DNA of 64,000 bases from Minisyncoccia bacterium (GTDB taxonomy: Bacteria; Patescibacteriota; Minisyncoccia; SW-4-49-11), in contig JBIKWJ010000001.1 of NCBI GenBank assembly GCA_044356325.1, positions 56,305 through 120,304 of the forward strand, read 5' to 3'. Each line of letters starts with the position of its first letter. Within the stretch, counting starts at the first letter, position 1. Under the pieces are notes generated by a model. It was not told the origin of the DNA, did not search any database, and saw only the letters and a program-made list of their open reading frames with translations. Below are positions 12,174-46,864 of the stretch, in pieces. Position numbers and translations under genes: made by a program.

Positions 12174-13541
12174 TTAGTAAGCGACTGGTCTTGGCATTGG
12201 AACTGGTAAAATATTAGTAAATCCAGATTGAAAAAATAATAAATACAAAGCCAATATAATTACAAACCAAATAAATTGTAGAATGATAATTGACAATAAA
12301 TTACCCCAACCCTTTCTCAAACCAACCATAATAGCTGGTGCGAGGAGAATGAGAGCATATAATAGAGTTGTGATGACTGAAATCAGAGAGCTGAATGTGG
12401 GATCATAATATATATATTGCCATACATTATTATAATTCAAGACTCTTAATATAAGACTTATAATAATGACTACAATAACTGCTCCCAGACTAATTAAAAC
12501 ATTATTCAAATCAAATAAATGAATAGAATTTTTATTGGTAATATTCTGCTCCTTATTTTGTGTTTTGCGAGAGTCATCCGAACTTTTTTTAGGTTTAGAA
12601 TTGATATATTTTGAAATGAGATAAATCAATACAATAATCGCAGCAATCACGAGAATTGTATTGATAATTTCATTGAGATAAAGCCTCAACCAATTCTTGG
12701 CATATTCTCCTCTGACATTAAAACTCTCATTAGGAGCGAGACTTTTACCCTCTTTTATAATTGCTCCATAAGAGCCAATATTACTAACTACCCTGTCTAA
12801 TTCCCTACTAGATACAGCTGATGAATCTCCTAATTTAGCCATAGGCATAGTCCCAGCACTTTCATTATAATTGACCGATGATTGTTTGCCTTTGATAAAT
12901 AAATCACTATCTACATCTACTGCTACTTTCGTTGATTGTATTCTGGAATTTACTCGTATAGTCTCAAAATTGAATTTATATAAACCAAAAGTATTATCTA
13001 CATAACCCTTAGAAGCATAAGAGATAATAAGAGCAGTAGATTTGGAAGGCTCGACTGAATTAGGCAAAGTTAAATTATAAGTATTTCCCGTTTTCGTATA
13101 TTTGATTTTAGTATATTCAGCTGATTGTCCTGAGCCATAGTAATAATAATCTTGCCCATAATCTGGGTCACGATATTCCAAACACTTATTAGGTTGAGTA
13201 TTATAATCATATCTTACACATTCTGGAGGTAATTTCATCTGATACATTATCATCTCATAAGGATCAACTTTTGGAATTTCAAAACTAAAGTCGCTGAGAG
13301 CCTGTTCCTCTCGATTAGGGATAACTATTTTAGCATAGGTAATAGCCTCACCATTACCACGAAAAACCACACTATAGGAATGTTTTTGCCCAAATAAAAG
13401 TGAGTTGGAAGTATCAGAGGGTATAGGTGGAATAGGATACAGAGCAGGTCTTGATTCAGCAAAAACAACTCCCCCAAAATTAGTTAAAAAAAGACCCAGT
13501 ACTAGTACTAAAGCAATAGATTTCCTTATTATTTTATACAT
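12174..13541 (-). CDS. Secreted, membrane-anchored hypothetical protein.
   Basis: 455 aa. It has an N-terminal signal peptide (LVLVLGLFLTNFGGVVFA), a large extracytoplasmic domain and C-terminal transmembrane helices. Confidence 0.45.
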   Translation of the reverse strand: MYKIIRKSIALVLVLGLFLTNFGGVVFAESRPALYPIPPIPSDTSNSLLFGQKHSYSVVFRGNGEAITYAKIVIPNREEQALSDFSFEIPKVDPYEMIMYQMKLPPECVRYDYNTQPNKCLEYRDPDYGQDYYYYGSGQSAEYTKIKYTKTGNTYNLTLPNSVEPSKSTALIISYASKGYVDNTFGLYKFNFETIRVNSRIQSTKVAVDVDSDLFIKGKQSSVNYNESAGTMPMAKLGDSSAVSSRELDRVVSNIGSYGAIIKEGKSLAPNESFNVRGEYAKNWLRLYLNEIINTILVIAAIIVLIYLISKYINSKPKKSSDDSRKTQNKEQNITNKNSIHLFDLNNVLISLGAVIVVIIISLILRVLNYNNVWQYIYYDPTFSSLISVITTLLYALILLAPAIMVGLRKGWGNLLSIIILQFIWFVIILALYLLFFQSGFTNILPVPMPRPVAY

Positions 13542-36515: not shown

Positions 36516-36857
36516 TTATGATACAGCCTCTTCAGCTTCGGGCAATATATCTAATCTTCGCTCATCTATCTCTTCTCCCGTATGAATATCTCTTCCATAT
36601 GTTCCCGCTTCAATCCGAGCCAAAGCCTTATCAATTTTTACCAAAGTTTCCTCTAAAGTCCCCTCTATGAGAAGATCCCTCTCATAATTCACTTGTTCCT
36701 GGGCATTATCTTCTTCATCTTCACTGATATTATGATATTTAACCTCATAACCACTACCGACACTGTCTTTAACTGCAACAGAATCAAGCTCTGAGGTAAT
36801 TCTTTGTCTTTTTTCAAGAAGTCTATTACGATAGATTTCTAATTTTACTGAATCCAT
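36516..36857 (-). CDS. DksA/TraR-family protein lacking the Cys4 zinc finger.
   Basis: 113 aa. It has an N-terminal coiled coil and a C-terminal ...ALARIEAGTYGRDIHTGEEI... where the usual CxxC pairs are absent. Confidence 0.45.
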   Translation of the reverse strand: MDSVKLEIYRNRLLEKRQRITSELDSVAVKDSVGSGYEVKYHNISEDEEDNAQEQVNYERDLLIEGTLEETLVKIDKALARIEAGTYGRDIHTGEEIDERRLDILPEAEEAVS

Positions 36858-36895
36858 ATTATATATACTAATTTTATACTTACTATTATAGTATA

Positions 36896-37660
36896 TTATA
36901 CCAAAGAAGTAAATACAAGCAATCCCAATAATATACTAATTAATACTATTCTAGCTAATATTTTTTTAGTATTTAATGTTCTTAAATAAATATCTCGAAA
37001 TATGGATAGCGAGAATATCAAAAAAGTAGTTAATATAATTGATTGAGTAAGATGTGTTAATGGTAAAACTCTAAGACCAATAAACAACTCAACAATTATT
37101 ATAGCAAGCATAAGAGACATAATACGATAAAATTGACGATTAATTCCATACATCCATAAAATATATAATGAAATATTTAGTGTAGAAATAAAAGCAATAA
37201 TACTCAATAATATCGGTGATATTGTTCCAATAAATATAGACCCGAATAAAAAGGCATAGGTCGAAAAAGATACAAATATACTTCCAGATATAATAACTTG
37301 ACGCATAAATTCTGAATTTCGATACTCTTTATGAGAAATAATATCTTGTACAAAAAATAATCCTATTCCAAGAGCAATTACAATAACAGTAATAGGTACG
37401 GTGTCCCCTTTTATCACCTGCATAAATAGAATTGATGCAAGAATAAAATGCAAAGGAATTTGATAAGCTCTTATTCTATATCGATATAAAAACACTAAAT
37501 ATGCGACTAAGATACATAATCCTAATATTCCAAATAAACTCAATAGTGGCTGTATCTTTTGAATTGTATAAAGATAAGCGGGAAAAAATCCAATGAGCAA
37601 TATAATATTCCAGAAATTTTTCTGAAATATTATTTGTTGTAACCATTTCACATACTGCAT
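36896..37660 (-). CDS. Polytopic membrane protein, unknown function.
   Basis: 254 aa with about 8 hydrophobic helices. Confidence 0.4.
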   Translation of the reverse strand: MQYVKWLQQIIFQKNFWNIILLIGFFPAYLYTIQKIQPLLSLFGILGLCILVAYLVFLYRYRIRAYQIPLHFILASILFMQVIKGDTVPITVIVIALGIGLFFVQDIISHKEYRNSEFMRQVIISGSIFVSFSTYAFLFGSIFIGTISPILLSIIAFISTLNISLYILWMYGINRQFYRIMSLMLAIIIVELFIGLRVLPLTHLTQSIILTTFLIFSLSIFRDIYLRTLNTKKILARIVLISILLGLLVFTSLV

Positions 37661-37663
37661 ATA

Positions 37664-39577
37664 TTATCTCCGAAACTTGATTGATCTTCCTTGTGGCATA
37701 TTGTTTTTTGTAGGTTCTTTAGGTACCATGAGATTTGATTTTACTTCAGATAATAATTCATCTAAAAGTCCATTTACACTTAATTTTTCTTCTTGGCTTG
37801 AGACATGTAAATCTTTTAGGAATTTTTCTTTGATTAAATATTCTGATTCTCCATAAGCAGAAGTTGATCTACTAAATACCTCTTTTAATTTTTTTGCCAT
37901 TATGGGATTTACATATTCTACGGGCTCAGTAGTAGGGATATCTTGCTTCACTTCTGGAATAACTTCTTCTTTTTTCTCCTCTACTTGTGTGGCAGTATCA
38001 GCGAGTTGGGTGGATACAGGAGGAACAATCTCCTCCTTAGGTATAGGATGATTTTCTATTTTCTCATCTATTTTGGGAGTAGCATCTATAGACTGTAATG
38101 GTAGTATAGGAGCGCTATTAGTCGTATCTTTAGATATAGGATTTTCTTGCTCTGATTTTGGATAAACTATAGGATTAGGTTTATTTGATGCATTATATGA
38201 CTTTGATTTATCATTATAGGGTTTAGAATAAGCTCTAGATTTGTTATCTCTGTCTGATGAAACTTTTGCTTGGGTCTCTGAAGATTTTTTAGTATCTATA
38301 TTCTCAATATGAGCTCCTCTCAGTGAAGATTTAACATTTCCATATGTTTGACGAGAAAATTCAATGATTTTGTCCCTATTGGATATCAACTCTGGCTCTG
38401 GATCAGGTAATGTATCCGCACTAAAAGGCTGACTTGTAGCTCCATCTATCATAAGTTTCAAATATACTTTCCATTTTGGAAGATTAACCAAATCCTCAAT
38501 AGTAAGAACCGGGCTAAATTCTCTCTCCATAAATTCAGCATCAGCAGCCCCAATCCTAAATACAATAGTAGTTCCCACATTTCCAAATACGGCACCTCTT
38601 ACAATTTCAGATAATTGCTCTACATATTGATGAGCTAATATAAGACTTAATCGATATTTGCGAGCTTCTGATAATATTTCCGCAAAAGAATCCGTAGAGA
38701 AATTTTGAAACTCATCAATATAGGCATAAAAATCTTGTCGCTCTTCTTCTGGTATATCAACACGACTCATAGCTGCAAGTTGCATTTTGGTAATCATCAT
38801 CGCTCCGAGTAATTGAGCTCCCCCCTCACCCACAGCTCCTTTAGAAAGATTCATAATCAAAATTTTCTTTTGATCCATAATTTCACGCAAATTAAAAGAA
38901 GATTTAGCCTGTCCAACAATATTACGTATAAGAGGAGAAGAAGTAAATTGTCCTACTTTATTTTGAATTGGTGAAATAGCCTCAACCAATAATTTATCCG
39001 TATATCCATCAAATTCATTAAGCCAAAATTGCTTTAATACAGGATCATGCATTTTATACACAATATTAGCTCGGAAATTCTTATCTACGAGAATACGCAT
39101 AATATCAAGCAAAGTACTTTCTTCATTTTCAAGCAAAGTCAATATGGTATTACGAAGAATATATTCAAGTCTTGGCCCCCAAGAATCAGCCCAAATTTTC
39201 TTAAATACTCCTACCAAACCATCGGATACAATATGTCTTTGATTTTCTGGCACATCACCAAGCACATTAAAAGCAATAGGAAATTCTAAATCTTGTGGAT
39301 TAAAATACACCACATCTTTTATACGATGTTCTGGAATATAATCAAGCAAGGCATCTGCTATATCTCCATGGGGATCAACAAAAGCAAACCCTGAACCATT
39401 TCTAATATCAGACACCGCCATATTGAGAAGTAATGAGGTTTTACCCATACCTGTTTTTCCAATAATATGCATATGTCGACGCCTATCATCTCGCTTAATA
39501 CCAAAAAGTCTTCCCTGACCATGAAAATTAGTCTTGGCAATAATGGTGATATCTTTATTTGTTTGATTTTCACTCAT
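37664..39577 (-). CDS. Soluble VirD4/TraG/TraD-like coupling-protein ATPase with a long low-complexity C-terminal tail.
   Basis: 637 aa. Walker A is HMHIIGKTGMGKTSLL and Walker B is YAYIDEFQNF. It also has the TraG/VirD4-type RKYRLSLILAHQYVEQL motif. It has no N-terminal transmembrane helices. The C-terminal roughly 230 aa is Ser/Lys/Pro/Asn-rich. Confidence 0.6.
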   Translation of the reverse strand: MSENQTNKDITIIAKTNFHGQGRLFGIKRDDRRRHMHIIGKTGMGKTSLLLNMAVSDIRNGSGFAFVDPHGDIADALLDYIPEHRIKDVVYFNPQDLEFPIAFNVLGDVPENQRHIVSDGLVGVFKKIWADSWGPRLEYILRNTILTLLENEESTLLDIMRILVDKNFRANIVYKMHDPVLKQFWLNEFDGYTDKLLVEAISPIQNKVGQFTSSPLIRNIVGQAKSSFNLREIMDQKKILIMNLSKGAVGEGGAQLLGAMMITKMQLAAMSRVDIPEEERQDFYAYIDEFQNFSTDSFAEILSEARKYRLSLILAHQYVEQLSEIVRGAVFGNVGTTIVFRIGAADAEFMEREFSPVLTIEDLVNLPKWKVYLKLMIDGATSQPFSADTLPDPEPELISNRDKIIEFSRQTYGNVKSSLRGAHIENIDTKKSSETQAKVSSDRDNKSRAYSKPYNDKSKSYNASNKPNPIVYPKSEQENPISKDTTNSAPILPLQSIDATPKIDEKIENHPIPKEEIVPPVSTQLADTATQVEEKKEEVIPEVKQDIPTTEPVEYVNPIMAKKLKEVFSRSTSAYGESEYLIKEKFLKDLHVSSQEEKLSVNGLLDELLSEVKSNLMVPKEPTKNNMPQGRSIKFRR

Positions 39578-39586
39578 AATACTGAA

Positions 39587-40867
39587 TTACTCATTGATAA
39601 TAGGAAGTCCCATAGGGGGATTTGCTTTTTTAGCTTGTACTCTTTTAAGAGTTGATGTAGTAATTGCTCCTCCTGGAAAATGAAAGATAGTTGTTAATTC
39701 CTCCGTATTAAAAATAAATTTTGTACTTGCAATTTTGCGTTTAATATAACTATCTAACATTAATATTTTACGAAGACGTTCTTTGCCACGAATAGGTCTA
39801 TTAAAAAAATTACTTACTATAGTTATACTATCTTCATTAGGTTTAAAAGAATTAAGCGTAGAATCATTAAATTGCTTTAAACTACCAAGTAATGCTTTTG
39901 GTTGATTTGGGTTGAATCGAGCTTTTGGAGCTACATATACAACTCTTAAAGCTGTTTTAAATCCTGATTTTGTCATACTAAGTTCAATAGTTTCTATGAT
40001 TTTTTGTTTACCTGGGGTAAGATTTTGATTTACTCCAAATTTTTGTTCTTTTGGAGTAGGTGCTGATGGGGCTTTAACAATACCAAATGAAATAAATTCA
40101 ATGATAGGAGCTATATAGATATCTAAGAATGTTCTCTTATCTTCAAAATCTCGATCCAGTAGCTTATCTAATTCTTTTTTACTCACCTTATTCCAGGTAT
40201 CCTCAAGAGGCTCAATAGGTAATTGCATCCATAATTGCTCATCTGGCTCTATCCCAGCCATTACTTCTAATACCTGAGACAATGGATCATTGATATTAGC
40301 ATCAATACTCGGGTCAAGGAATTGTTGATAGGTACGAATTGGGTAAGCATCATTTTTTTCCATACCAAGATCTACCCCAAAAAGATCATATTCAACCTCT
40401 AATGTATCATTAGTAAATCCTTGGGTATAATCAGAGACCTCTATTATTTCTACCTCCGGAAAAGCCCCATATATGCTATTTTCTACCATTTTGCGATATT
40501 TGACATGAGTTCTGATGAGAAAGTGAATATCTCCTCCAATTGATACAATTTCAAGAGAAAACATATCTGGAAGAGCTCCTTCTATATTTTTTTCCCACCA
40601 AGAATAAGAAGTTTGCCCCCCATGTAGGGTAGTCAAAAATTGCTCCATTGATTTAGGCGTTTTTTCTTCTCCTTTTTCTAATACAATTTCAAGTAATACA
40701 AATTGCAAATTATTACGAATCCAATTCCCTCGAATAAAATCAAAATAAAATGTTCTCAGTATAGTCCACAATATTATTGGAAGCCAAATCCACCAAAAAG
40801 ATAGAATAAATTCAAAAATAAAAAATGCCTGATTTGTGTTTACATAAGATAAAGTATCACTAGGCAT
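39587..40867 (-). CDS. Membrane-anchored protein of unknown function, a likely partner of the ATPase.
   Basis: 426 aa. The N-terminal hydrophobic hairpin (FFIFEFILSFWWIWLPIILWTIL) is followed by a large soluble domain. It is separated from the ATPase by a 9 bp gap. Confidence 0.4.
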   Translation of the reverse strand: MPSDTLSYVNTNQAFFIFEFILSFWWIWLPIILWTILRTFYFDFIRGNWIRNNLQFVLLEIVLEKGEEKTPKSMEQFLTTLHGGQTSYSWWEKNIEGALPDMFSLEIVSIGGDIHFLIRTHVKYRKMVENSIYGAFPEVEIIEVSDYTQGFTNDTLEVEYDLFGVDLGMEKNDAYPIRTYQQFLDPSIDANINDPLSQVLEVMAGIEPDEQLWMQLPIEPLEDTWNKVSKKELDKLLDRDFEDKRTFLDIYIAPIIEFISFGIVKAPSAPTPKEQKFGVNQNLTPGKQKIIETIELSMTKSGFKTALRVVYVAPKARFNPNQPKALLGSLKQFNDSTLNSFKPNEDSITIVSNFFNRPIRGKERLRKILMLDSYIKRKIASTKFIFNTEELTTIFHFPGGAITTSTLKRVQAKKANPPMGLPIINE

Positions 40868-40922
40868 ACATTTGTGTCTATTATATGTATCAAGTATATC
40901 AGGAAATATTTTGTTCGTCTAC

Positions 40923-42065
40923 TTACAAAGTTGTCTTTTGTAACAAATCAATAAGCCTAGTATTAAGCTCTTTGCCAGCTGTATGTATATCCTTGTCTGA
41001 GGCATAACTATATACCAAGACTCCTTCATCATATTCACCATCCAAATCTGAAAGAAAATGAGCCATATCAAGTTTAGGGAAATCTAGATACCCTTGTTTG
41101 GTACTATTCCCATTATCAAGGAGAATATGAAGTCCCAAATTATCACTCGGTAAATAAGATAGTATTGTTCGGTATATCAGAGGTATATCCTTAGCCTTAG
41201 TATGAGTTTTAGAAAAATCATGGGGAAAAAGCTTAGAATACGCGTAGCGATGTTTTACTCCCTGAATAGTGATTTCCATCCACTCTAAATGAGCTAGAAT
41301 ACGGCCAATAAGTAATCTCTGACTATCTGTAATAAGACTATTAAGAGCATTATCAATAGCGGTATAATTAGCTCCTAATTCTCTCATCTCAATAATTGCT
41401 TTATCTACTGCTAATGTACGAGATGATAATAATAAAGAGAATAACAGGGCATTACAAATATTTTCATTCCAAGCATTGGGATAATACGTTTTAATATAGT
41501 CAATAATAATCTCAGCATTAGAATTATAGGCTGAATTATATATTGTTTTTTCAGAATAAGGATGCTTTATATCAAAAGCTGATATAGCAAGAGAAGGTGT
41601 ATCAATCAATATATGGGGATAATCTGTAAAATATTGCCCTAATTGAGTCCAGTTTTGTGTATCTAATGTTACTACCAAATCATAAGAATATTTGCCAGGA
41701 GTAATAGTAACTAATTCTGATTGGAATTTTTCTGAAGGTGAATTGAGATAAATTCTAATCTCAGAATCCGTTCTATCATATTTGAGAGATTCAATAGGAT
41801 ATTTGGTAGTATCAATAGAAATTACTGACTCTACAGAACCTTGTAATATTGAGGTTATCATACTAGTATCAATCATAGTCAATACTTGCTGTATATGAGT
41901 ATATGAGGATATAATACTCACTTGTTTTCCCTCAGATTGTAATAAAGAAGCTAAGGCTAGGGCTGAGCCCAATATATGTATTCCATGAATTTCTGGAATC
42001 GGAATTACAATTGACTGAGCATTTTGTAATGTCTCATGCATTAATGTCAAATCTGATACAGCCAT
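40923..42065 (-). CDS. DHH-phosphoesterase-superfamily-like protein (degenerate, probably non-catalytic).
   Basis: 380 aa. The N-terminal ...GIHILGSALALASLLQSEGKQVSII... resembles the NrnA/DHH motif I region, but the canonical DHH and GGGH motifs are not evident. Confidence 0.3.
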   Translation of the reverse strand: MAVSDLTLMHETLQNAQSIVIPIPEIHGIHILGSALALASLLQSEGKQVSIISSYTHIQQVLTMIDTSMITSILQGSVESVISIDTTKYPIESLKYDRTDSEIRIYLNSPSEKFQSELVTITPGKYSYDLVVTLDTQNWTQLGQYFTDYPHILIDTPSLAISAFDIKHPYSEKTIYNSAYNSNAEIIIDYIKTYYPNAWNENICNALLFSLLLSSRTLAVDKAIIEMRELGANYTAIDNALNSLITDSQRLLIGRILAHLEWMEITIQGVKHRYAYSKLFPHDFSKTHTKAKDIPLIYRTILSYLPSDNLGLHILLDNGNSTKQGYLDFPKLDMAHFLSDLDGEYDEGVLVYSYASDKDIHTAGKELNTRLIDLLQKTTL

Positions 42066-42123
42066 ATAATATCCCTATATAAAGACTTATTATACCAAAA
42101 TACTTATATATAGTCAAAAATAT

Positions 42124-42417
42124 TTGTGAGATGGGGAGATAGTAGACCAAACAGATTACTATACATTGCTAGCCTAAGGACCCTAGCTTGTCACAAAAAT
42201 TGTCCTCCTTTGCCTGCCTGCGGTAGGCAGGGAGGAGGTGGCCGTCAGGCCGGAGGTGGATAGAGTTCAAGTTTGTATATTATCCACCCCCGCCTTTCAG
42301 ACTCCCCCCTCCAAAGGGGGATAAAAGTAATAATTCTTTTGTTACGACAACATATGCTACCTTAAGGTCGCCCCTACACAAATCTCATTTTGTCTATGAT
42401 GTATCTCATCTTATTCA
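42124..42417. repeat. GC-rich MITE-like element, copy C.
   Basis: Nearly identical to copy E at 57708-58003. The right TIR is ...gtaggggcgacctt...tgtctatgatgtatctcatcttattca and the left TIR is tttgtgagatggggagatagtagacc. The core contains ttgcctgcctgcggtaggcagggaggaggtggccgtcaggccggaggtgga. Confidence 0.7.
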
Positions 42418-42427
42418 AGACAATCTC

Positions 42428-42745
42428 CTAAGCTTGCCTTAATAAATCTCTTATTCCCTGTATAAATTCAGATAATTCTTTATCTAAATTTACATTTTGT
42501 ATAGTGTTCTCTGAATCCAATGCAATTTGTATTATGGATTGATTATTAATAGTAATATATATATATCGTTCTCTTACAAATAATGCCCGAGGATATGATA
42601 TCAGAACAGGAATATAATTGTTTTCTGTATTTACAAAATTAATGATAAAAGATCCATATTGCAATAATTCTTGTGCAATAAATTCATAGCTATCTATATG
42701 ATTATAGGCTTCTCCATAATGTGGTGAGAGATTTGCTGAATTCAT
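42428..42745 (-). CDS. Hypothetical protein.
   Basis: 105 aa with no recognisable family. It is the last gene of a three-gene minus-strand cluster. Confidence 0.4.
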   Translation of the reverse strand: MNSANLSPHYGEAYNHIDSYEFIAQELLQYGSFIINFVNTENNYIPVLISYPRALFVRERYIYITINNQSIIQIALDSENTIQNVNLDKELSEFIQGIRDLLRQA

Positions 42746-42748
42746 AGT

Positions 42749-43372
42749 TTAGAATTTACTAATAAGGAAATAATATAAGGCTGGTTGATAGTTTTCCGCC
42801 CATTTACGAGCTTGAGATTCACCATCACTATCCGCGGGAAAACAATTCCCCATCAAGCGATAGCAATAATCTTGTAAACTTTTGCTATAGGTATATAAAA
42901 CAGGTATTGCAGATTGTTGAAATAATGGCATTGCATAATAACGGTCCCCTATTTTGATATTATGAATAAAAGGAGTTTTGATGGCAAGTAAAATCATTTT
43001 AATAATTCTTGTTGCCATACCTACATCTCGAGTTTTGGTTTTACCCATAAAATAATTCCCATTTTGTAGTAATTTTTCTTCTCCGTTAGAATGGGCATAA
43101 CTCCGAATATTGGGCTCAATTCTAGAGTCCATATAGGCATAATGATCTAACATTGAAGGCTGAGTATATTCATTCTCTTCATGGGGAGGTAATAATTCAA
43201 ACACTTCTGTATGTTTTTTGACTACAGAAGCTGGAATTTGAACCATTCCATATGGCTTAACTTTTACATAAGAATCCAAATCTCGCATATATTCAATAAT
43301 ATCTCCACGGCGTAAATATGTCATGGTATGAATATATTCGAAATCTTGATTGAGTTTATACCTATCAGCCAT
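42749..43372 (-). CDS. Hypothetical protein.
   Basis: 207 aa, soluble, with no recognisable family. Confidence 0.4.
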   Translation of the reverse strand: MADRYKLNQDFEYIHTMTYLRRGDIIEYMRDLDSYVKVKPYGMVQIPASVVKKHTEVFELLPPHEENEYTQPSMLDHYAYMDSRIEPNIRSYAHSNGEEKLLQNGNYFMGKTKTRDVGMATRIIKMILLAIKTPFIHNIKIGDRYYAMPLFQQSAIPVLYTYSKSLQDYCYRLMGNCFPADSDGESQARKWAENYQPALYYFLISKF

Positions 43373-43373
43373 A

Positions 43374-43592
43374 TTATGTTAACAAAAGTATAACTTGAGT
43401 AAGTACAAGAGATGCCCCAATACTCCATATACCCATCACAATAAAAGAAAAACTTCTCAGCTCACCTTTTTCATTTGGAGACATTTGTTGAATAAATCCA
43501 GTACTTACCAATACAAACATAGTAGCTATCGTACTGGTAACTGCTATTGATATCAGGGACAATGCCCATACTTGTATAAATTCTGTCGCCAT
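43374..43592 (-). CDS. Small membrane protein with two transmembrane helices.
   Basis: 72 aa with two hydrophobic helices. It is the first gene of the cluster and sits downstream of a consensus promoter. Confidence 0.4.
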   Translation of the reverse strand: MATEFIQVWALSLISIAVTSTIATMFVLVSTGFIQQMSPNEKGELRSFSFIVMGIWSIGASLVLTQVILLLT

Positions 43593-43648
43593 AGTCTCAA
43601 GAGCTGATTATTAAGCGTCCTCCTGCCATATGGCTTTGAGAACTATTA

Positions 43649-43677
43649 AATATATCATATCCATATTATTTTGTCAA
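43649..43677 (-). promoter_or_regulatory. Sigma70-like promoter.
   Basis: On the minus strand: cta-TTGACA, a 17 nt spacer, then TATATT. It shares the ctattgacaaa motif. Confidence 0.45.
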
Positions 43678-43744
43678 TAGAAAATTACAAGTAAAATGAC
43701 AAAAGTTGTCAAATAAAAAAGATGTTGTATGGTACAACATCTTC

Positions 43745-43990
43745 AAAGGTGAGCAGAGATTTAGGCAGCTTGCATTTCTTCAGATGGAATACAAACTTCC
43801 TCGATATTCTTAATAATATTTTCATTGTCAAAGTCTCTAGGGCTAAATAACGTATAAACCTTATTTCTCAAAGAGTCCCTAGATAAAATCTGAGGAAGAG
43901 GGAAATGCCTATTAATAACATCGTGAATATCTGTATCTCATAATATTTTTTTAGTATTGAAATGAGCGATAATTTCTTCTGAACTAGGGA
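43745..43990 (-). pseudogene. Small ORF interrupted by an in-frame TGA, a paralog of the gene at 44136-44339.
   Basis: The minus strand reads ATG ACA CTA CTC AAA ATC CCT AGT TCA GAA GAA ATT ATC GCT CAT TTC AAT ACT AAA AAA ATA TTA TGA GAT ACA ..., and the same frame then continues for 58 more codons to TAA. The N-terminus MTLLKIPSSEEI resembles MDNKIIVPSEEI of the neighbouring gene. Confidence 0.35.
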
Positions 43991-44031
43991 TTTTGAGTAG
44001 TGTCATTTGAATTAATGAGTACCACATCAAA

Positions 44032-44060
44032 ATTATATCTATACAGTATATATTTGTCAA
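44032..44060 (-). promoter_or_regulatory. Consensus sigma70 promoter (TTGACA, 17 nt, TATAAT).
   Basis: On the minus strand: ctaTTGACAaatatatactgtatagaTATAATtttga. The ATG of the interrupted ORF lies about 40 nt downstream. Confidence 0.5.
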
Positions 44061-44085
44061 TAGACTACATCTATTTATTATTAAA

Positions 44086-44119
44086 AGAAAAATCGGCTCC
44101 CGGAGAAGCCGATTTTTTA
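44086..44119. terminator. Bidirectional rho-independent terminator.
   Basis: aaaaa-tcggctcccggagaagccga-tttttt. Confidence 0.55.
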
Positions 44120-44135
44120 ATAGTATAAATAAGGA

Positions 44136-44339
44136 TTAATCCTCTGGAACAAGTTGTAATATTCTTTCCAAAATGAGATCTACCTGATCAGGAAACTGGG
44201 TTTTTAGTTGATCTGATAGCCTAGAAACAGACAACTGTAACCCAGCATATTCAAGGAGATGATTCAGATCTTTAGACTCAAGAAAACCGAAATTCGTCCA
44301 CAGGATCTCTTCAGAAGGAACAATGATCTTGTTATCCAT
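44136..44339 (-). CDS. Hypothetical small protein, paralog of the interrupted ORF upstream.
   Basis: 67 aa, MDNKIIVPSEEILWTNFGFLESKDLNHLLEY.... Confidence 0.4.
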   Translation of the reverse strand: MDNKIIVPSEEILWTNFGFLESKDLNHLLEYAGLQLSVSRLSDQLKTQFPDQVDLILERILQLVPED

Positions 44340-44390
44340 TAAAAATCAGGCAATACAACTCTAATATATTATGTATAAAACTGTATTTTG

Positions 44391-45311
44391 TCAAGCTTTT
44401 TTATACCAAGCTCTATATATAATTACCAGTAATGGGGAGGCGATGAATATAGATGAATAGGCTCCAAAGAAAGTCCCGAGGAATAAAGCTAAAGCAAAAT
44501 ATTTGACTGTTGCTCCTCCAAAAAAGAATATAGCTCCCAATACTACCAATAATGATACCGAGGTATTAATGGATCTTGTAAAGGTTTGATCTATACTTTT
44601 ACCTACTGTCTCTTCAAAATTATCTCCTCCATAGCGCCGAATATTTTCTCGAATTCTATCAAAAACAACAATAGTATCATTAATGGAAGATCCTAATATT
44701 GATAATAAAGCGATCACAAATAATACATCAATTTGTAATATTCCACGATAGGAAAGATAGGCAAATACTCCTGTTGGTATTGCAATATCATGAATAAGAG
44801 CAATAATAGCGGTAAGTCCATAATAGCGAGAAGGCACTGGATAGGAAACCCCACGGAATACATAGGTTATAAAAATAATAATCGCAACTAATACAATAGC
44901 AATAGCAATTAAAGCTCGGTTTTTTAGCTCTGATCCAATACTAGAACTAATCAGAGAATTAGATTGTTCTTTTATAATATCAGCTTTTGCAATTTCTTCA
45001 GTATCATATTTTAGTGCAATATCTTGCTTTAATGTAGTATATTGCTCATCATTAATAGGTTCTAATTCAATACGAAATACTGCATTGTCTTGTTTTGTCA
45101 CAATTCTGGGTTTTTGTCCTTTTTCGCTAAGAGCTTTTGTTAATTCCTCAGTTGATAAATTAGGTTGACTCGTAATTTTCCATTCTACTGTTCTCCCTCC
45201 AATAAAATCAGGTCCTAGCCTCAGACCAAATACTACAAGACTAATAATAGAGGCAATTATTAATACCAATCCTATTATTAACCATATTCTTGTATGTCGT
45301 ATAATCCACAT
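44391..45311 (-). CDS. secF: Protein-export membrane protein SecF.
   Basis: Typical SecF transmembrane topology and sequence. The start is probably an internal Met overlapping the secD stop. Confidence 0.85.
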   Translation of the reverse strand: MWIIRHTRIWLIIGLVLIIASIISLVVFGLRLGPDFIGGRTVEWKITSQPNLSTEELTKALSEKGQKPRIVTKQDNAVFRIELEPINDEQYTTLKQDIALKYDTEEIAKADIIKEQSNSLISSSIGSELKNRALIAIAIVLVAIIIFITYVFRGVSYPVPSRYYGLTAIIALIHDIAIPTGVFAYLSYRGILQIDVLFVIALLSILGSSINDTIVVFDRIRENIRRYGGDNFEETVGKSIDQTFTRSINTSVSLLVVLGAIFFFGGATVKYFALALFLGTFFGAYSSIFIASPLLVIIYRAWYKKA

Positions 45312-45313
45312 AA

Positions 45314-46864
45314 TTATTTCTGTAAGGTAATAAAGCGACCAAATTTTGTCTTTAATAACCATTCTTGATATCCAAGTAAAATGATTAATAGCCTACTGAC
45401 GGTAATAGCGGTAAACAAGCTAACACCTATTCCAATAGTAAGTGTTACTCCAAATCCTCTCACTACTCCAGAAGCTAAATAAAACAAGATAAGAGCAGAT
45501 ATTAAGGTAGATATATGAGAATCTCGAATTGATTCCCAAGCTCGCTTAAATCCTTCTTTTGCGCTTGCCTCAAAATCCCTCCCATTAGCAAGTTCCTCCT
45601 TCATACGCTCGAATATCAAAATATTACCGTCCACTGCAATTCCAATACTTACAATAAATCCGGTAATTCCTGCTATTGTCAAAGTAAATCCTAGTATATT
45701 AAATATAGCGAGCACCAATATTGCATATACTCCTAAAGCAATTACTGCAATCAACCCCAAACCTCGATAAAAGAGTATCATAAAAATAGCAACAAATAAT
45801 AATCCAAATCCTCCAGCTCGAATACTTTGATATAATGATTCAGTACCGAGGCTTGCTTGTATAATTTGTTGTGAAGCAATGGTAATTGGTACAGGCAAGG
45901 CTCCTGAATTCAAATAATCAACCAATTCCTTAGCACCTTGAGCAGTAAAGTCTCCAGATATTGTTGCCTGTCCATTAGGTATTTCTTGATTAATTCGAGG
46001 AGCACTCACAACTTGACCATCTAGGACAATATAAAGAATTTTTCCAATATTATCTCGGGTAAATTCAGCAAATTTTTTCTTCCCCTCATCATCAAATTTA
46101 ATACCTACTTGTGGCTGCGCAGTTTGTGGATCAAAAATAACTTGAGCATTATCAAGATTTTGTCCTGTTAATACTGGAGATCCGATAAAATCAAGATTTG
46201 CTAGATTTTCTAGATTTTCTAGATTACCGCTTTGTATCTGCTCTATAATTTTTTGCCTTTCTTCTGGGGGTCTTACTTTATCAAAAAACTCTAAAGTTGG
46301 AGTTTGTCCAATTTGCTTAATTGCTTGCTCTGGATCTTTAATCCCCGCAAGCTCTACTACTAATCGAGTTGTGTCCCCTTGCTCTAAATAAATATGAGGC
46401 TCACTAACTCCAAAAGAATCTACTCTTTGGGTTACAACTTTTTGTAAACTCTCCAAGGCTTGTTTTTGATCAGGCCCTGCTATCCCTTTTAAATCAACAT
46501 CATATACCACTCTTACTCCCCCCTGTAAGTCGAGACCTAATATAAAGGTATTATTTGGTAATGGTGGAATATCTCTTTGAGATAGCCATTGATCAAATCC
46601 TCGAGACTTAAATGGTAAGTTTCCCCATTGAGATAAATTGTCTGAACCTCTATTAATCCCATCAATAAGCTTATTAATTGGCTGTGGATAAATATAAAAT
46701 AATGCAAATAATGTTAGTACAAGAACTCCAATTGATTGTCTTATGATATTTCCTTTTTTGGTTTTCCCTTTAATACAATACCAAATAAATAGTCCTATTT
46801 TATCAAATGGATACCAAATTATTTTCAATATATTTCCCGGTAATCGTTTCAGCCAATTCAGCAT
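45314..46864 (-). CDS. secD: Protein-export membrane protein SecD.
   Basis: 516 aa with a periplasmic domain and a C-terminal 6-TM region. The coding sequence contains a 9 bp x3 tandem repeat encoding NLENLENLANL. Confidence 0.85.
   Translation of the reverse strand: MLNWLKRLPGNILKIIWYPFDKIGLFIWYCIKGKTKKGNIIRQSIGVLVLTLFALFYIYPQPINKLIDGINRGSDNLSQWGNLPFKSRGFDQWLSQRDIPPLPNNTFILGLDLQGGVRVVYDVDLKGIAGPDQKQALESLQKVVTQRVDSFGVSEPHIYLEQGDTTRLVVELAGIKDPEQAIKQIGQTPTLEFFDKVRPPEERQKIIEQIQSGNLENLENLANLDFIGSPVLTGQNLDNAQVIFDPQTAQPQVGIKFDDEGKKKFAEFTRDNIGKILYIVLDGQVVSAPRINQEIPNGQATISGDFTAQGAKELVDYLNSGALPVPITIASQQIIQASLGTESLYQSIRAGGFGLLFVAIFMILFYRGLGLIAVIALGVYAILVLAIFNILGFTLTIAGITGFIVSIGIAVDGNILIFERMKEELANGRDFEASAKEGFKRAWESIRDSHISTLISALILFYLASGVVRGFGVTLTIGIGVSLFTAITVSRLLIILLGYQEWLLKTKFGRFITLQK

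Follow-up and report, generated by a model that had tools for sequence, protein, structure and literature searches.

A conserved pair of a VirD4-type ATPase and a DUF8128 membrane protein with a predicted VirB4-like fold in Patescibacteria

Results

Five co-directional genes in a housekeeping region

The window, that is, the whole 64-kb stretch of DNA that was analysed, contains five open reading frames on the minus strand, from 36516-36857 to 40923-42065, exactly where the original prediction had placed them. These genes, the promoter match in front of them and the secDF genes further upstream are as follows.

36516..36857, minus strand: DksA/YteA-like protein without cysteines, 113 aa (NCBIfam matches below cut-off)
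36896..37660, minus strand: polytopic membrane protein, 254 aa, about seven hydrophobic segments
37664-39577, minus strand: soluble ATPase, 637 aa
39587..40867, minus strand: DUF8128 (PF26449) protein, 426 aa, proposed half for anchoring and docking
40923..42065, minus strand: degenerate DHH-superfamily (NrnA/TM1595-like) protein, 380 aa, from profile matches
42089..42117, minus strand: sigma-70-like promoter match, TTGACT-17-TATAAT with extended TG, 11/12 consensus
44391-45362, minus strand: secF, upstream synteny partner of the module
45314-46864, minus strand: secD, upstream synteny partner of the module

The genes are tightly spaced (3-55 nt), no strong terminator match was found inside the run, and the promoter match stands 24 nt ahead of the DHH-like gene. 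It may be the start of a transcription unit through the DUF8128-ATPase pair, which is only suggestive since promoter-like sites in the window were overall not above the shuffled expectation. Nearly all genes of the window lie on one and the same strand, and the 20 large open reading frames checked were all housekeeping. Genes for VirB4, VirB6 or a relaxase were not found in the window, either among these 20 reading frames or by tblastn, and tblastn with VirB4, VirB6, TrsD and relaxase-like queries returned nothing in the flanks of 89 Patescibacteria loci. The lack of a nearby VirB4 or relaxase gene, part of the original prediction, therefore holds throughout the window, and VirB6 is likewise absent.

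A soluble ATPase of the VirD4/TrwB type

The following features were located in the ATPase.

39437-39460, minus strand: Walker A, GKTGMGKT, aa 40-47
38699-38719, minus strand: Walker B, IDEFQNF, aa 287-293
38612-38662, minus strand: RKYRLSLILAHQYVEQL signature, aa 306-322
38318..39577, minus strand: ATPase core, aa 1-420: RecA-like nucleotide-binding domain into which an all-helical segment is inserted (about aa 111-235)
37664..38317, minus strand: C-terminal tail, aa 421-637 (217 aa), disordered and rich in K/E/S/P

All three motifs expected in this protein (Walker A, Walker B and RKYRLSLILAHQYVEQL) were thus recovered, with both Walker motifs intact. A Kyte-Doolittle scan detected no hydrophobic segment above threshold, in agreement with the predicted lack of transmembrane helices. 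The low-complexity tail, announced as roughly 230 aa long, is real and slightly shorter; its pLDDT in the model is <50 for aa 422-581, i.e. for most of its length. It ends in the short motif GRSIKF, which is common to distant relatives (alignment A2). In the same alignment, most relatives from other lineages carry in their tail a CxxC-x17-CxxC treble-clef zinc finger, a zinc ribbon for which PF23477 was confirmed on one relative (P0176). This ribbon is absent from the window ATPase, the tail of which has no cysteine.

The protein scored above the gathering cut-offs of PF10412 (TrwB_AAD_bind, 32.5 bits for a cut-off of 20.5) and PF12696 (TraG-D_C, 26.5 bits for a cut-off of 22). Searches of the PDB with the single sequence and with a profile gave TrwB (2.9e-6) and DotL (5.6e-5), and no other significant relative. 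As for the predicted fold, the C-terminal domain of VirB4 and TrwB were matched about equally. The ATPase would therefore be classed as VirD4/TrwB-type by sequence and, equally well, as VirB4-type by modelled fold. Across the phylum, the cores share about 60% identity, and more than 100 alignment columns are invariant. An identity as HerA or FtsK was rejected: DUF87 stayed below its gathering cut-off, profile searches remained with TrwB_AAD_bind and TraG-D_C, and neither the HerA combination of a central domain above cut-off, a HAS-barrel and a NurA partner nor the FtsK alpha/beta/gamma domains were found. The assignment to VirD4/TraG-like ATPases thus withstood the profile searches.

A single-pass membrane protein with a predicted VirB4-like domain

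The DUF8128 gene precedes the ATPase start by 9 bp, a spacing that had been correctly noted. PF26449 is annotated on 120/120 of the homologs listed, and on the identical gene in another locus (L087). One membrane segment was assigned.

40754..40828, minus strand: single transmembrane helix, aa 14-38 of the DUF8128 protein, from hydropathy and model

This stretch of 25 residues is the sole N-terminal segment above the hydropathy threshold, it falls within one long helix in the predicted model, and a hydrophobic stretch is kept in 41/41 aligned homologs. Hydropathy and model hence argue for a single-pass anchor, where a transmembrane hairpin had been proposed. Nor does the remainder correspond to a "large unknown domain": the predicted fold of the cytoplasmic domain matches the N-terminal domain of VirB4/TrwK, a match that, like the other fold matches, rests on AlphaFold predictions that used 30-41 sequences as input. 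A profile search of the PDB with DUF8128 found no sequence relatives. With such a domain, the pair would resemble a split VirB4, rather than a coupling protein that has lost its two-helix anchor.

Only the DUF8128 and ATPase genes form a conserved unit

A set of 80 Patescibacteria loci, at species level, served to examine the conservation of gene order. In 66 of the 73 evaluable ones the ATPase gene is directly downstream of DUF8128, and in the other 7/73 it is away from it. Wherever the two are adjacent (n = 72) they are separate genes (72/72), set apart by a median of about 17 nt. Colinear DUF8128-ATPase fusions, which make up at least 25 protein clusters, occur in other lineages as well as Bacillus phages; one of them, P0399, has its DUF8128 part at aa 32-457 and its ATPase part at aa 463-873. 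The phage family phrog_5156 also spans both halves. Adjacency and fusions support the view that the two proteins are one functional unit, with the membrane anchor provided in trans. This part of the earlier proposal of a split coupling protein stands; what does not is the classical coupling protein, a VirB4-like fold being predicted instead.

L006, the nearest relative, is the one locus where the pair is joined by the genes for the DHH-like, polytopic membrane and DksA-like proteins; in other loci unrelated genes occupy their places. Context comparison thus dissolves the proposed five-gene cluster: of the five genes, only DUF8128 and the ATPase form a conserved unit, and the three others are bystanders of a narrow clade.

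The characters announced for these bystanders were otherwise borne out. The DHH-like gene adjoins DUF8128 only in L006, and its product shows no similarity to that of the sigma-like gene holding the same position elsewhere. A profile built from 46 relatives matched TM1595 (5.9e-39) and NrnA (2.9e-31), within an overall range of 1e-39 to 1e-28, and PF01368 was matched by 32/46 relatives. The catalytic motifs DxD, DHH, motif IV Asp and GGGH are all missing from the window protein, and GGGH is missing from 46/46 aligned relatives. The polytopic membrane protein, whose gene follows that of the ATPase in L006 alone, had no significant family match in Pfam, NCBIfam, PHROG or PADLOC. The DksA-like protein, also adjacent only in L006, matched the NCBIfam models yteA (7.8e-14; 52.1 bits for a cut-off of 134.4) and DksA_like (2.1e-10; 40.9 bits for a cut-off of 105); the matches to yteA and DksA models ranged overall from 8e-14 to 2e-9, with the alignment covering aa 1-112. 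It keeps the coiled-coil tip DxxDxA as DEEDNA (aa 47-52) and contains no cysteine, so that the four-cysteine zinc finger is missing.

Synteny partners in Patescibacteria and homologs in phages

Directly upstream of the pair, 66/72 loci have a gene encoding a protein with sigma-region-4 and HARE-HTH domains, which is also found upstream of one fused form. It was not found anywhere in the present window. The secF gene lies at most 2.5 kb upstream of DUF8128 in 34/54 evaluable loci, and the called genes of four loci (L001, L003, L004 and L087) agree with an upstream secDF synteny. The pair is conserved across Patescibacteria, among housekeeping genes and away from secretion or conjugation genes.

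The phage proteins of phrog_5156 are homologous to the pair over both halves, the profile matching DUF8128 at 77-368 and the ATPase at 407-807, and share about 22% identity with the fused protein of Patescibacteria. Members are gp156 of phage G, the 907-911-aa proteins of the SPO1-like phages SPO1L1, CP-51, JL and Shanette, and ORF23 of D6E. Alignment of the DUF8128 profile with gp156 by hhalign gave a probability of 98.4%. The phage proteins are fused, and the two checked, gp156 and the SPO1L1 protein, have no N-terminal transmembrane helix. In Bacillus phage G, gp156 comes directly after TrbL/VirB6-like and VirB4-like genes. The neighbours of the fused homolog in SPO1-like phages (Herelleviridae) and CP-51 are, on one side, an actin-like partition gene and, on the other, a gene for a Replic_Relax nicking protein.

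Length, domain position and synteny make SEML1_0293 of Southlakia epibionticum a probable ortholog of the module, in fused instead of split form. Its domain position matches that of fused forms such as P0409, and SEML1_0294, the sigma-region-4/HARE-HTH gene, is directly upstream, as in other loci. SEML1_0293 is counted among the core families enriched in Patescibacteria, and is non-essential in Tn-seq with a mild fitness cost (Wang et al. 2023). Reads of its mutants went from 5817 to 2940 and 1372, an about fourfold drop. Those of comEC mutants were 12586, 11147 and 12301, and reads for the comEC and dprA mutants stayed flat or rose.

Discussion

Likeness to known systems

The window motor belongs to the same ATPase sequence family as the coupling proteins VirD4, TrwB, TraD, TraG and DotL, and both have a RecA-like domain with an inserted all-alpha domain and a long variable C-terminal tail. 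However, coupling proteins bear a two-helix N-terminal domain on the same polypeptide, whereas the motor has none and would receive one helix from DUF8128, a separate or fused protein that, unlike the anchor of coupling proteins, carries a VirB4-like domain. The linkage of coupling proteins to relaxase or mating-pair genes was seen neither in the window nor in the flanks of the 89 loci, and scores for the NCBIfam coupling equivalogs (conju_CD1115 and TraD families) were below cut-off (43.1 bits for 250, and 31.8 for 366). Compared to plasmid coupling proteins, the module is chromosomal, phylum-wide and far more conserved.

The models of the pair match both the N-terminal domain and the C-terminal RecA-like ATPase of VirB4, the family of TrwK of R388. 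In contrast, a VirB4 sequence signal is missing in both halves (13.6 bits with TIGR00929 for a cut-off of 643, no Pfam CagE match), and so is the linkage to VirB3, VirB6 or VirB8 in the window and related Patescibacteria loci; the phage G homolog alone has it. Plasmid pGO1, where TrsD is directly followed by TrsE, provides a precedent for a split VirB4, although hhalign detected no similarity between DUF8128 and TrsD. The pair shows a weak fold similarity to EccE-EccC of type VII secretion. EccC, an FtsK-type ATPase, has several domains and brings its own membrane anchor, and other ESX genes are absent here.

A putative motor for DNA or nucleoprotein

The most likely role of the pair is that of a membrane-anchored motor handling DNA or nucleoprotein. 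More precisely, we think it probable that the two proteins together make up one membrane-anchored ATPase, a member of the type IV secretion family to which each provides one half, and that it moves DNA or nucleoprotein independently of a relaxase. The link to DNA comes from gene neighbourhood and family precedent. The motor would be a hexamer, as TrwB and VirB4, held by DUF8128 at the cytoplasmic face of the membrane, and would spend ATP to hand over or pull its substrate. A DNA-binding protein, that of the sigma-region-4/HARE-HTH gene found directly upstream in most lineages, would probably cooperate with it, and the motor would probably also act through the zinc ribbon of most orthologs. DNA handling is suggested by that upstream gene, by the zinc finger of most orthologs and by the phage neighbours, VirB4/VirB6-like or nickase and partition genes. 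Points against this reading are the missing zinc ribbon of the window ATPase, the sigma-like gene not found in the window and the 7/73 loci where the ATPase gene lies apart from DUF8128. Activity would be independent of relaxase-based conjugation, because no such genes were found in the window or the 89 flanks, and because of the orphan VirD4-type genes of a 2025 survey. Among the 3,035 Patescibacteria genomes of this survey, 2,918 (96%) had VirD4-type homologs and 2,417 had virB4; only 148 of the 5,713 VirD4-type genes were near virB4, and their role was left open (PMC12102498).

A bolder version, which we hold to be unlikely, sees in the pair a third, hitherto unrecognised architecture of type IV secretion ATPases, with a VirB4-type N-terminal domain and a VirD4-type motor. 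It would move host-derived or own nucleic acid across the epibiont membrane, the essential sigma-region-4/HARE-HTH protein acting as DNA- or RNA-binding adaptor.

Alternative functions

The pair might instead bring protein effectors or pilus-related substrates to a VirB4/VirB6 channel, its VirB4-like domain docking at the inner-membrane sites of VirB4. Such a role, unlikely in our view, would suit the place of the ATPase in the VirD4/TrwB group by sequence, the usual lack of a nearby coupling protein at Patescibacterial secretion loci (PMC12102498; PMC10633639) and the position of the phage G homolog. Yet the secretion genes of S. epibionticum are essential and SEML1_0293 is not, while SEML1_0142, another ATPase with a TraM-recognition domain, is essential; VirD4-type homologs occur in some 500 more genomes than virB4, and an identity of about 60% phylum-wide would be unusual for the recognition of variable effectors. 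If the pair acted as VirB4 itself, as an assembly or extraction ATPase pulling pilins or small membrane proteins from the bilayer, its conserved place next to secDF would find an explanation. VirB4 is the best fold match of both halves (about equal with TrwB for the motor), and TrsD-TrsE shows that it can be split. This is nevertheless quite unlikely given the missing VirB4 sequence signal, the negative comparison with TrsD, the lack of pilin, VirB3 or VirB6 genes nearby, and the canonical VirB4 that most Patescibacteria already have.

A role in competence, raised by the original prediction, found no support, and we regard as very unlikely that the pair drives natural transformation as its cytoplasmic motor, pulling incoming DNA through ComEC as ComFA does in Firmicutes. 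Patescibacteria are naturally competent and dependent on scavenged nucleotides (PMC10633639), the module and comEC are both dispensable in co-culture, and a zinc ribbon is present in most orthologs. But SEML1_0293 mutants fall and those of comEC do not, so the module does something beyond ComEC-dependent uptake; no linked competence genes were seen in the Patescibacteria loci with called genes that were read. It is most improbable that all five genes build one novel envelope translocation apparatus: their tight spacing, the good upstream promoter match and the absence of a strong internal terminator match would fit, but nearly all window genes share the strand, and synteny contradicts it, the three extra genes being replaced by unrelated ones outside L006. 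A defence-system motor of the HerA, DptH or MADS mad8 type is scarcely credible, with a DUF87 score below cut-off, no methyltransferase, nuclease, Sir2 or NurA among the neighbour genes examined, and a fixed chromosomal position and phylum-wide conservation at about 60% identity where defence islands are patchy.

Significance

The orphan VirD4-type genes of Patescibacteria gain an anatomy: an obligatory DUF8128 partner, which would serve as membrane anchor and VirB4-like docking domain. They are fused with this partner in some lineages and Bacillus phages, and travel with an essential sigma-region-4/HARE-HTH gene. A fold can now be proposed, from the models, for DUF8128, a Pfam domain of unknown function, and the module is a possible intermediate form for the divergence of VirB4 and VirD4. 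It is also accessible to experiment, since its probable ortholog SEML1_0293 tolerates transposon insertion in the genetically tractable S. epibionticum. If the third architecture proved true, about 5,700 orphan coupling-protein genes would be tied to the nucleotide-scavenging lifestyle of the phylum.

A predicted membrane-anchored module encoded by two adjacent genes

The five open reading frames, all on the minus strand, lie exactly where the original prediction had placed them.

40923–42065, minus strand: DHH-like protein
39587–40867, minus strand: DUF8128 protein (PF26449), 426 aa
37664–39577, minus strand: ATPase, 637 aa
36896–37660, minus strand: polytopic membrane protein
36516–36857, minus strand: DksA/YteA-like protein, 113 aa

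The ATPase carries the Walker A motif GKTGMGKT (aa 40–47), the Walker B motif IDEFQNF (aa 287–293) and the coupling-protein signature RKYRLSLILAHQYVEQL (aa 306–322). It has no hydrophobic segment, consistent with the proposed absence of transmembrane helices. Its low-complexity tail is present as well; it is 217 aa long, K/E/S/P-rich, contains no cysteine and is modelled as disordered. As described, 9 bp separate the end of the DUF8128 gene from the ATPase gene downstream. An N-terminal transmembrane hairpin had been proposed for DUF8128, and this did not hold: a single hydrophobic segment of 25 residues (aa 14–38) was found instead. In the model this segment belongs to one long helix, so DUF8128 is predicted to cross the membrane once, with its body in the cytoplasm, rather than as a hairpin.

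Synteny was compared in a set of 80 species-level loci. The ATPase gene was immediately 3′ of the DUF8128 gene in 66 of 73 evaluable loci, and in all adjacent cases (72/72) the two were separate genes; many of them overlap, and the median gap is about 17 nt. Joining the two window proteins end to end and using them as a query retrieved at least 25 single proteins of 860–1160 aa that contain both PF26449 and PF10412 and span 90–98% of the joined query. In one of these fused homologs, P0399, aa 32–457 match DUF8128 and aa 463–873 match the ATPase at 60% identity, so that the join falls in a short linker between the halves. The same arrangement is found in phages: the PHROG family phrog_5156 (824 positions, unknown function) aligns with DUF8128 at positions 77–368 and with the ATPase at 407–807, and its members include gp156 of Bacillus phage G and 907–911-aa proteins of SPO1-like phages. 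Alignment of the DUF8128 profile to gp156 with hhalign gave a probability of 98.4%. The two genes form one unit. Adjacency, fusions and a phage family spanning both halves define its complete predicted architecture as a transmembrane helix, a VirB4-like N-terminal domain and a VirD4-type motor. A natural precedent for the two-gene arrangement exists in pGO1, where TrsD is directly followed by the VirB4-like TrsE.

The neighbouring genes are not part of the module

The five genes had been read as one apparatus. Outside the window, however, the genes for the DHH-like, polytopic membrane and DksA-like proteins were next to the pair in L006 alone, the locus of the closest relative (78% DUF8128 identity). 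Elsewhere, the genes downstream of the pair vary, and the gene upstream of it encodes an unrelated, roughly 350-aa protein. The window is a low-GC chromosome stretch (about 33% GC) composed of housekeeping genes (among them aminoacyl-tRNA synthetases, DnaB, RseP, DnaK, TatD, PBP1a, SecDF, PBP2, MreBC and RuvB); nearly all are on the same strand, and co-directionality alone is therefore no evidence on operons. A 455-aa open reading frame without Pfam match lies amid them (12174–13541).

The description of two of the neighbours was borne out. The DHH-like protein is a genuine DHH-superfamily homolog without any catalytic motif. In its Patescibacterial family of about 380-aa proteins (608 representatives found by phmmer at E up to 0.001), the DHHA1 GGGH motif is missing family-wide (alignment A3), and many members retain only 'NIDH'; the sequences suggest that the family as a whole is a pseudoenzyme or has been repurposed for binding. 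The DksA-like protein lacks the zinc-finger cysteines and retains the DxxDxA coiled-coil tip (DEEDNA). Because this tip is kept, the protein may still be an RNA-polymerase factor, and its sequence suggests that it still binds the secondary channel. No family assignment was found for the polytopic membrane protein.

Between secF and the DHH-like gene lie about 2.3 kb (42066–44390) that L006 lacks; there, only 17 nt separate these two genes. This segment, which may be a small inserted island, carries four open reading frames without family hits (67, 72, 207 and 105 aa), the 72-aa one having two hydrophobic segments. A promoter scan of the window gave sites overall no better than in shuffled sequence. 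As an individual strong match, a perfect sigma-70-like promoter (TTGACA-17-TATAAT) was seen at 44060–44032, minus strand, with a strong terminator-like hairpin about 290 nt further on (43744–43718, minus strand). The stretch in between has no open reading frame above 40 aa, and an Rfam scan at gathering threshold gave no match in 43718–44060. This interval could be a candidate small RNA on the minus strand.

Conserved genomic context of the module

In 66 of 72 Patescibacteria loci, the gene immediately upstream of DUF8128 encodes a protein with sigma-70 region 4 and a HARE-HTH domain; such a gene also precedes a fused form. The protein is about 350 aa long, with sigma-70 region 4 N-terminal and HARE-HTH near the C-terminus. 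Examples in four homologous Patescibacteria loci are:

L001, 6790–7890: sigma-region-4/HARE-HTH gene
L003, 5834–6982: sigma-region-4/HARE-HTH gene
L004, 6863–7903: sigma-region-4/HARE-HTH gene
L090, 6901–8001: sigma-region-4/HARE-HTH gene

This gene is not adjacent to the pair in the clade of the window, and a search of the whole window did not reveal it. The DHH-like protein was considered as a diverged form of it, and BLASTP against the sigma-like proteins at the same position showed no homology. The secF gene lies at most 2.5 kb upstream of DUF8128 in 34 of 54 loci. Several titles of metagenome-assembled genomes among the homologs that name taxa other than Patescibacteria (e.g. Gammaproteobacteria, Bathyarchaeia) were not relied on.

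As anticipated, low-sensitivity pairwise searches detected no VirB4, VirB6, TrsD or relaxase-like gene in the window, nor in the related Patescibacteria loci: when VirB4, VirB6, TrsD, TrsK and Replic_Relax sequences were compared by tblastn with the window and with every Patescibacteria locus, the sole match was the ATPase's own P-loop. This agrees with the survey of Quiñonero-Coronel et al. 2025 (PMC12102498), in which VirD4-type homologs were present in 2,918 of 3,035 genomes and virB4 in 2,417, with only 148 of 5,713 VirD4-type homologs near virB4; a different role for the orphan VirD4-type genes was left open.

Tn-seq data from Southlakia epibionticum

SEML1_0293 of S. epibionticum (921 aa, TrwB_AAD_bind from about aa 402) follows SEML1_0294, a sigma-region-4/HARE-HTH gene, and resembles P0409 and other fused forms in its layout; we infer that it is orthologous to the module. 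In the Tn-seq study of Wang et al. 2023, it belongs to a core, Patescibacteria-enriched family and was called non-essential, but its normalised reads dropped from 5817 to 2940 and then 1372 over three time points. SEML1_0294, also Patescibacteria-enriched, was essential, as were the canonical FtsK, the secretion-system genes and SEML1_0142, a second ATPase with a TraM-recognition domain; comEC and dprA mutants had flat or rising read counts. A role of the pair as a substitute for FtsK was rejected, an essential canonical one being present, and the data also argue against the module being the motor of the essential secretion-system function, as well as against a purely ComEC-dependent role.

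Proposed function

The module resembles coupling proteins in its putative working, but it has neither their transmembrane domain nor a relaxase linkage. Likewise, it resembles VirB4 in predicted shape, but without the VirB4 sequence signature or linkage to VirB3, VirB6 or VirB8. It lacks defining features of both families. For DUF8128, the VirB4-like assignment is by fold only, from predicted structures: its profile had no match among PDB sequences, and no homology to TrsD is claimed, hhalign against pGO1 TrsD giving no signal. In hhalign, the ATPase profile matched single TrsE and TrsK sequences in the motif regions only, which was uninformative. A defence system of the mad8, DptH or HerA kind was considered and rejected on the grounds of the distribution of the module and its fixed context.

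Orphan VirD4-type genes in Patescibacteria have been reported before, and DUF8128 is a catalogued domain. In the searchable literature, no description was found of its fold, of the obligatory pairing with its fusions, of the phage relatives or of the sigma-like partner, and a full-text search returned no relevant paper on DUF8128, TrwB_AAD_bind, or HARE-HTH in Candidate Phyla Radiation.

The best functional hints come from the phage homologs. In SPO1L1 and CP-51, the fused gene has an actin-like partition gene on one side and the gene of a Replic_Relax nicking protein on the other, and in D6E it comes after a partition gene. In the jumbo phage G, it comes after the genes of a TrbL/VirB6-like protein, a small protein and a VirB4-like protein in a compact type-IV-secretion-like cluster:

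L092 (Bacillus phage G), 1521–7085: gp153–gp156, encoding a TrbL/VirB6-like polytopic protein, the small gp154, a VirB4-like ATPase and the fused DUF8128-ATPase

These phage contexts, the HTH partner and the zinc ribbon that most orthologs carry would be explained most economically by a membrane-anchored hexameric motor, with hexamer formation, substrate and channel all putative, that may couple or translocate DNA or nucleoprotein.
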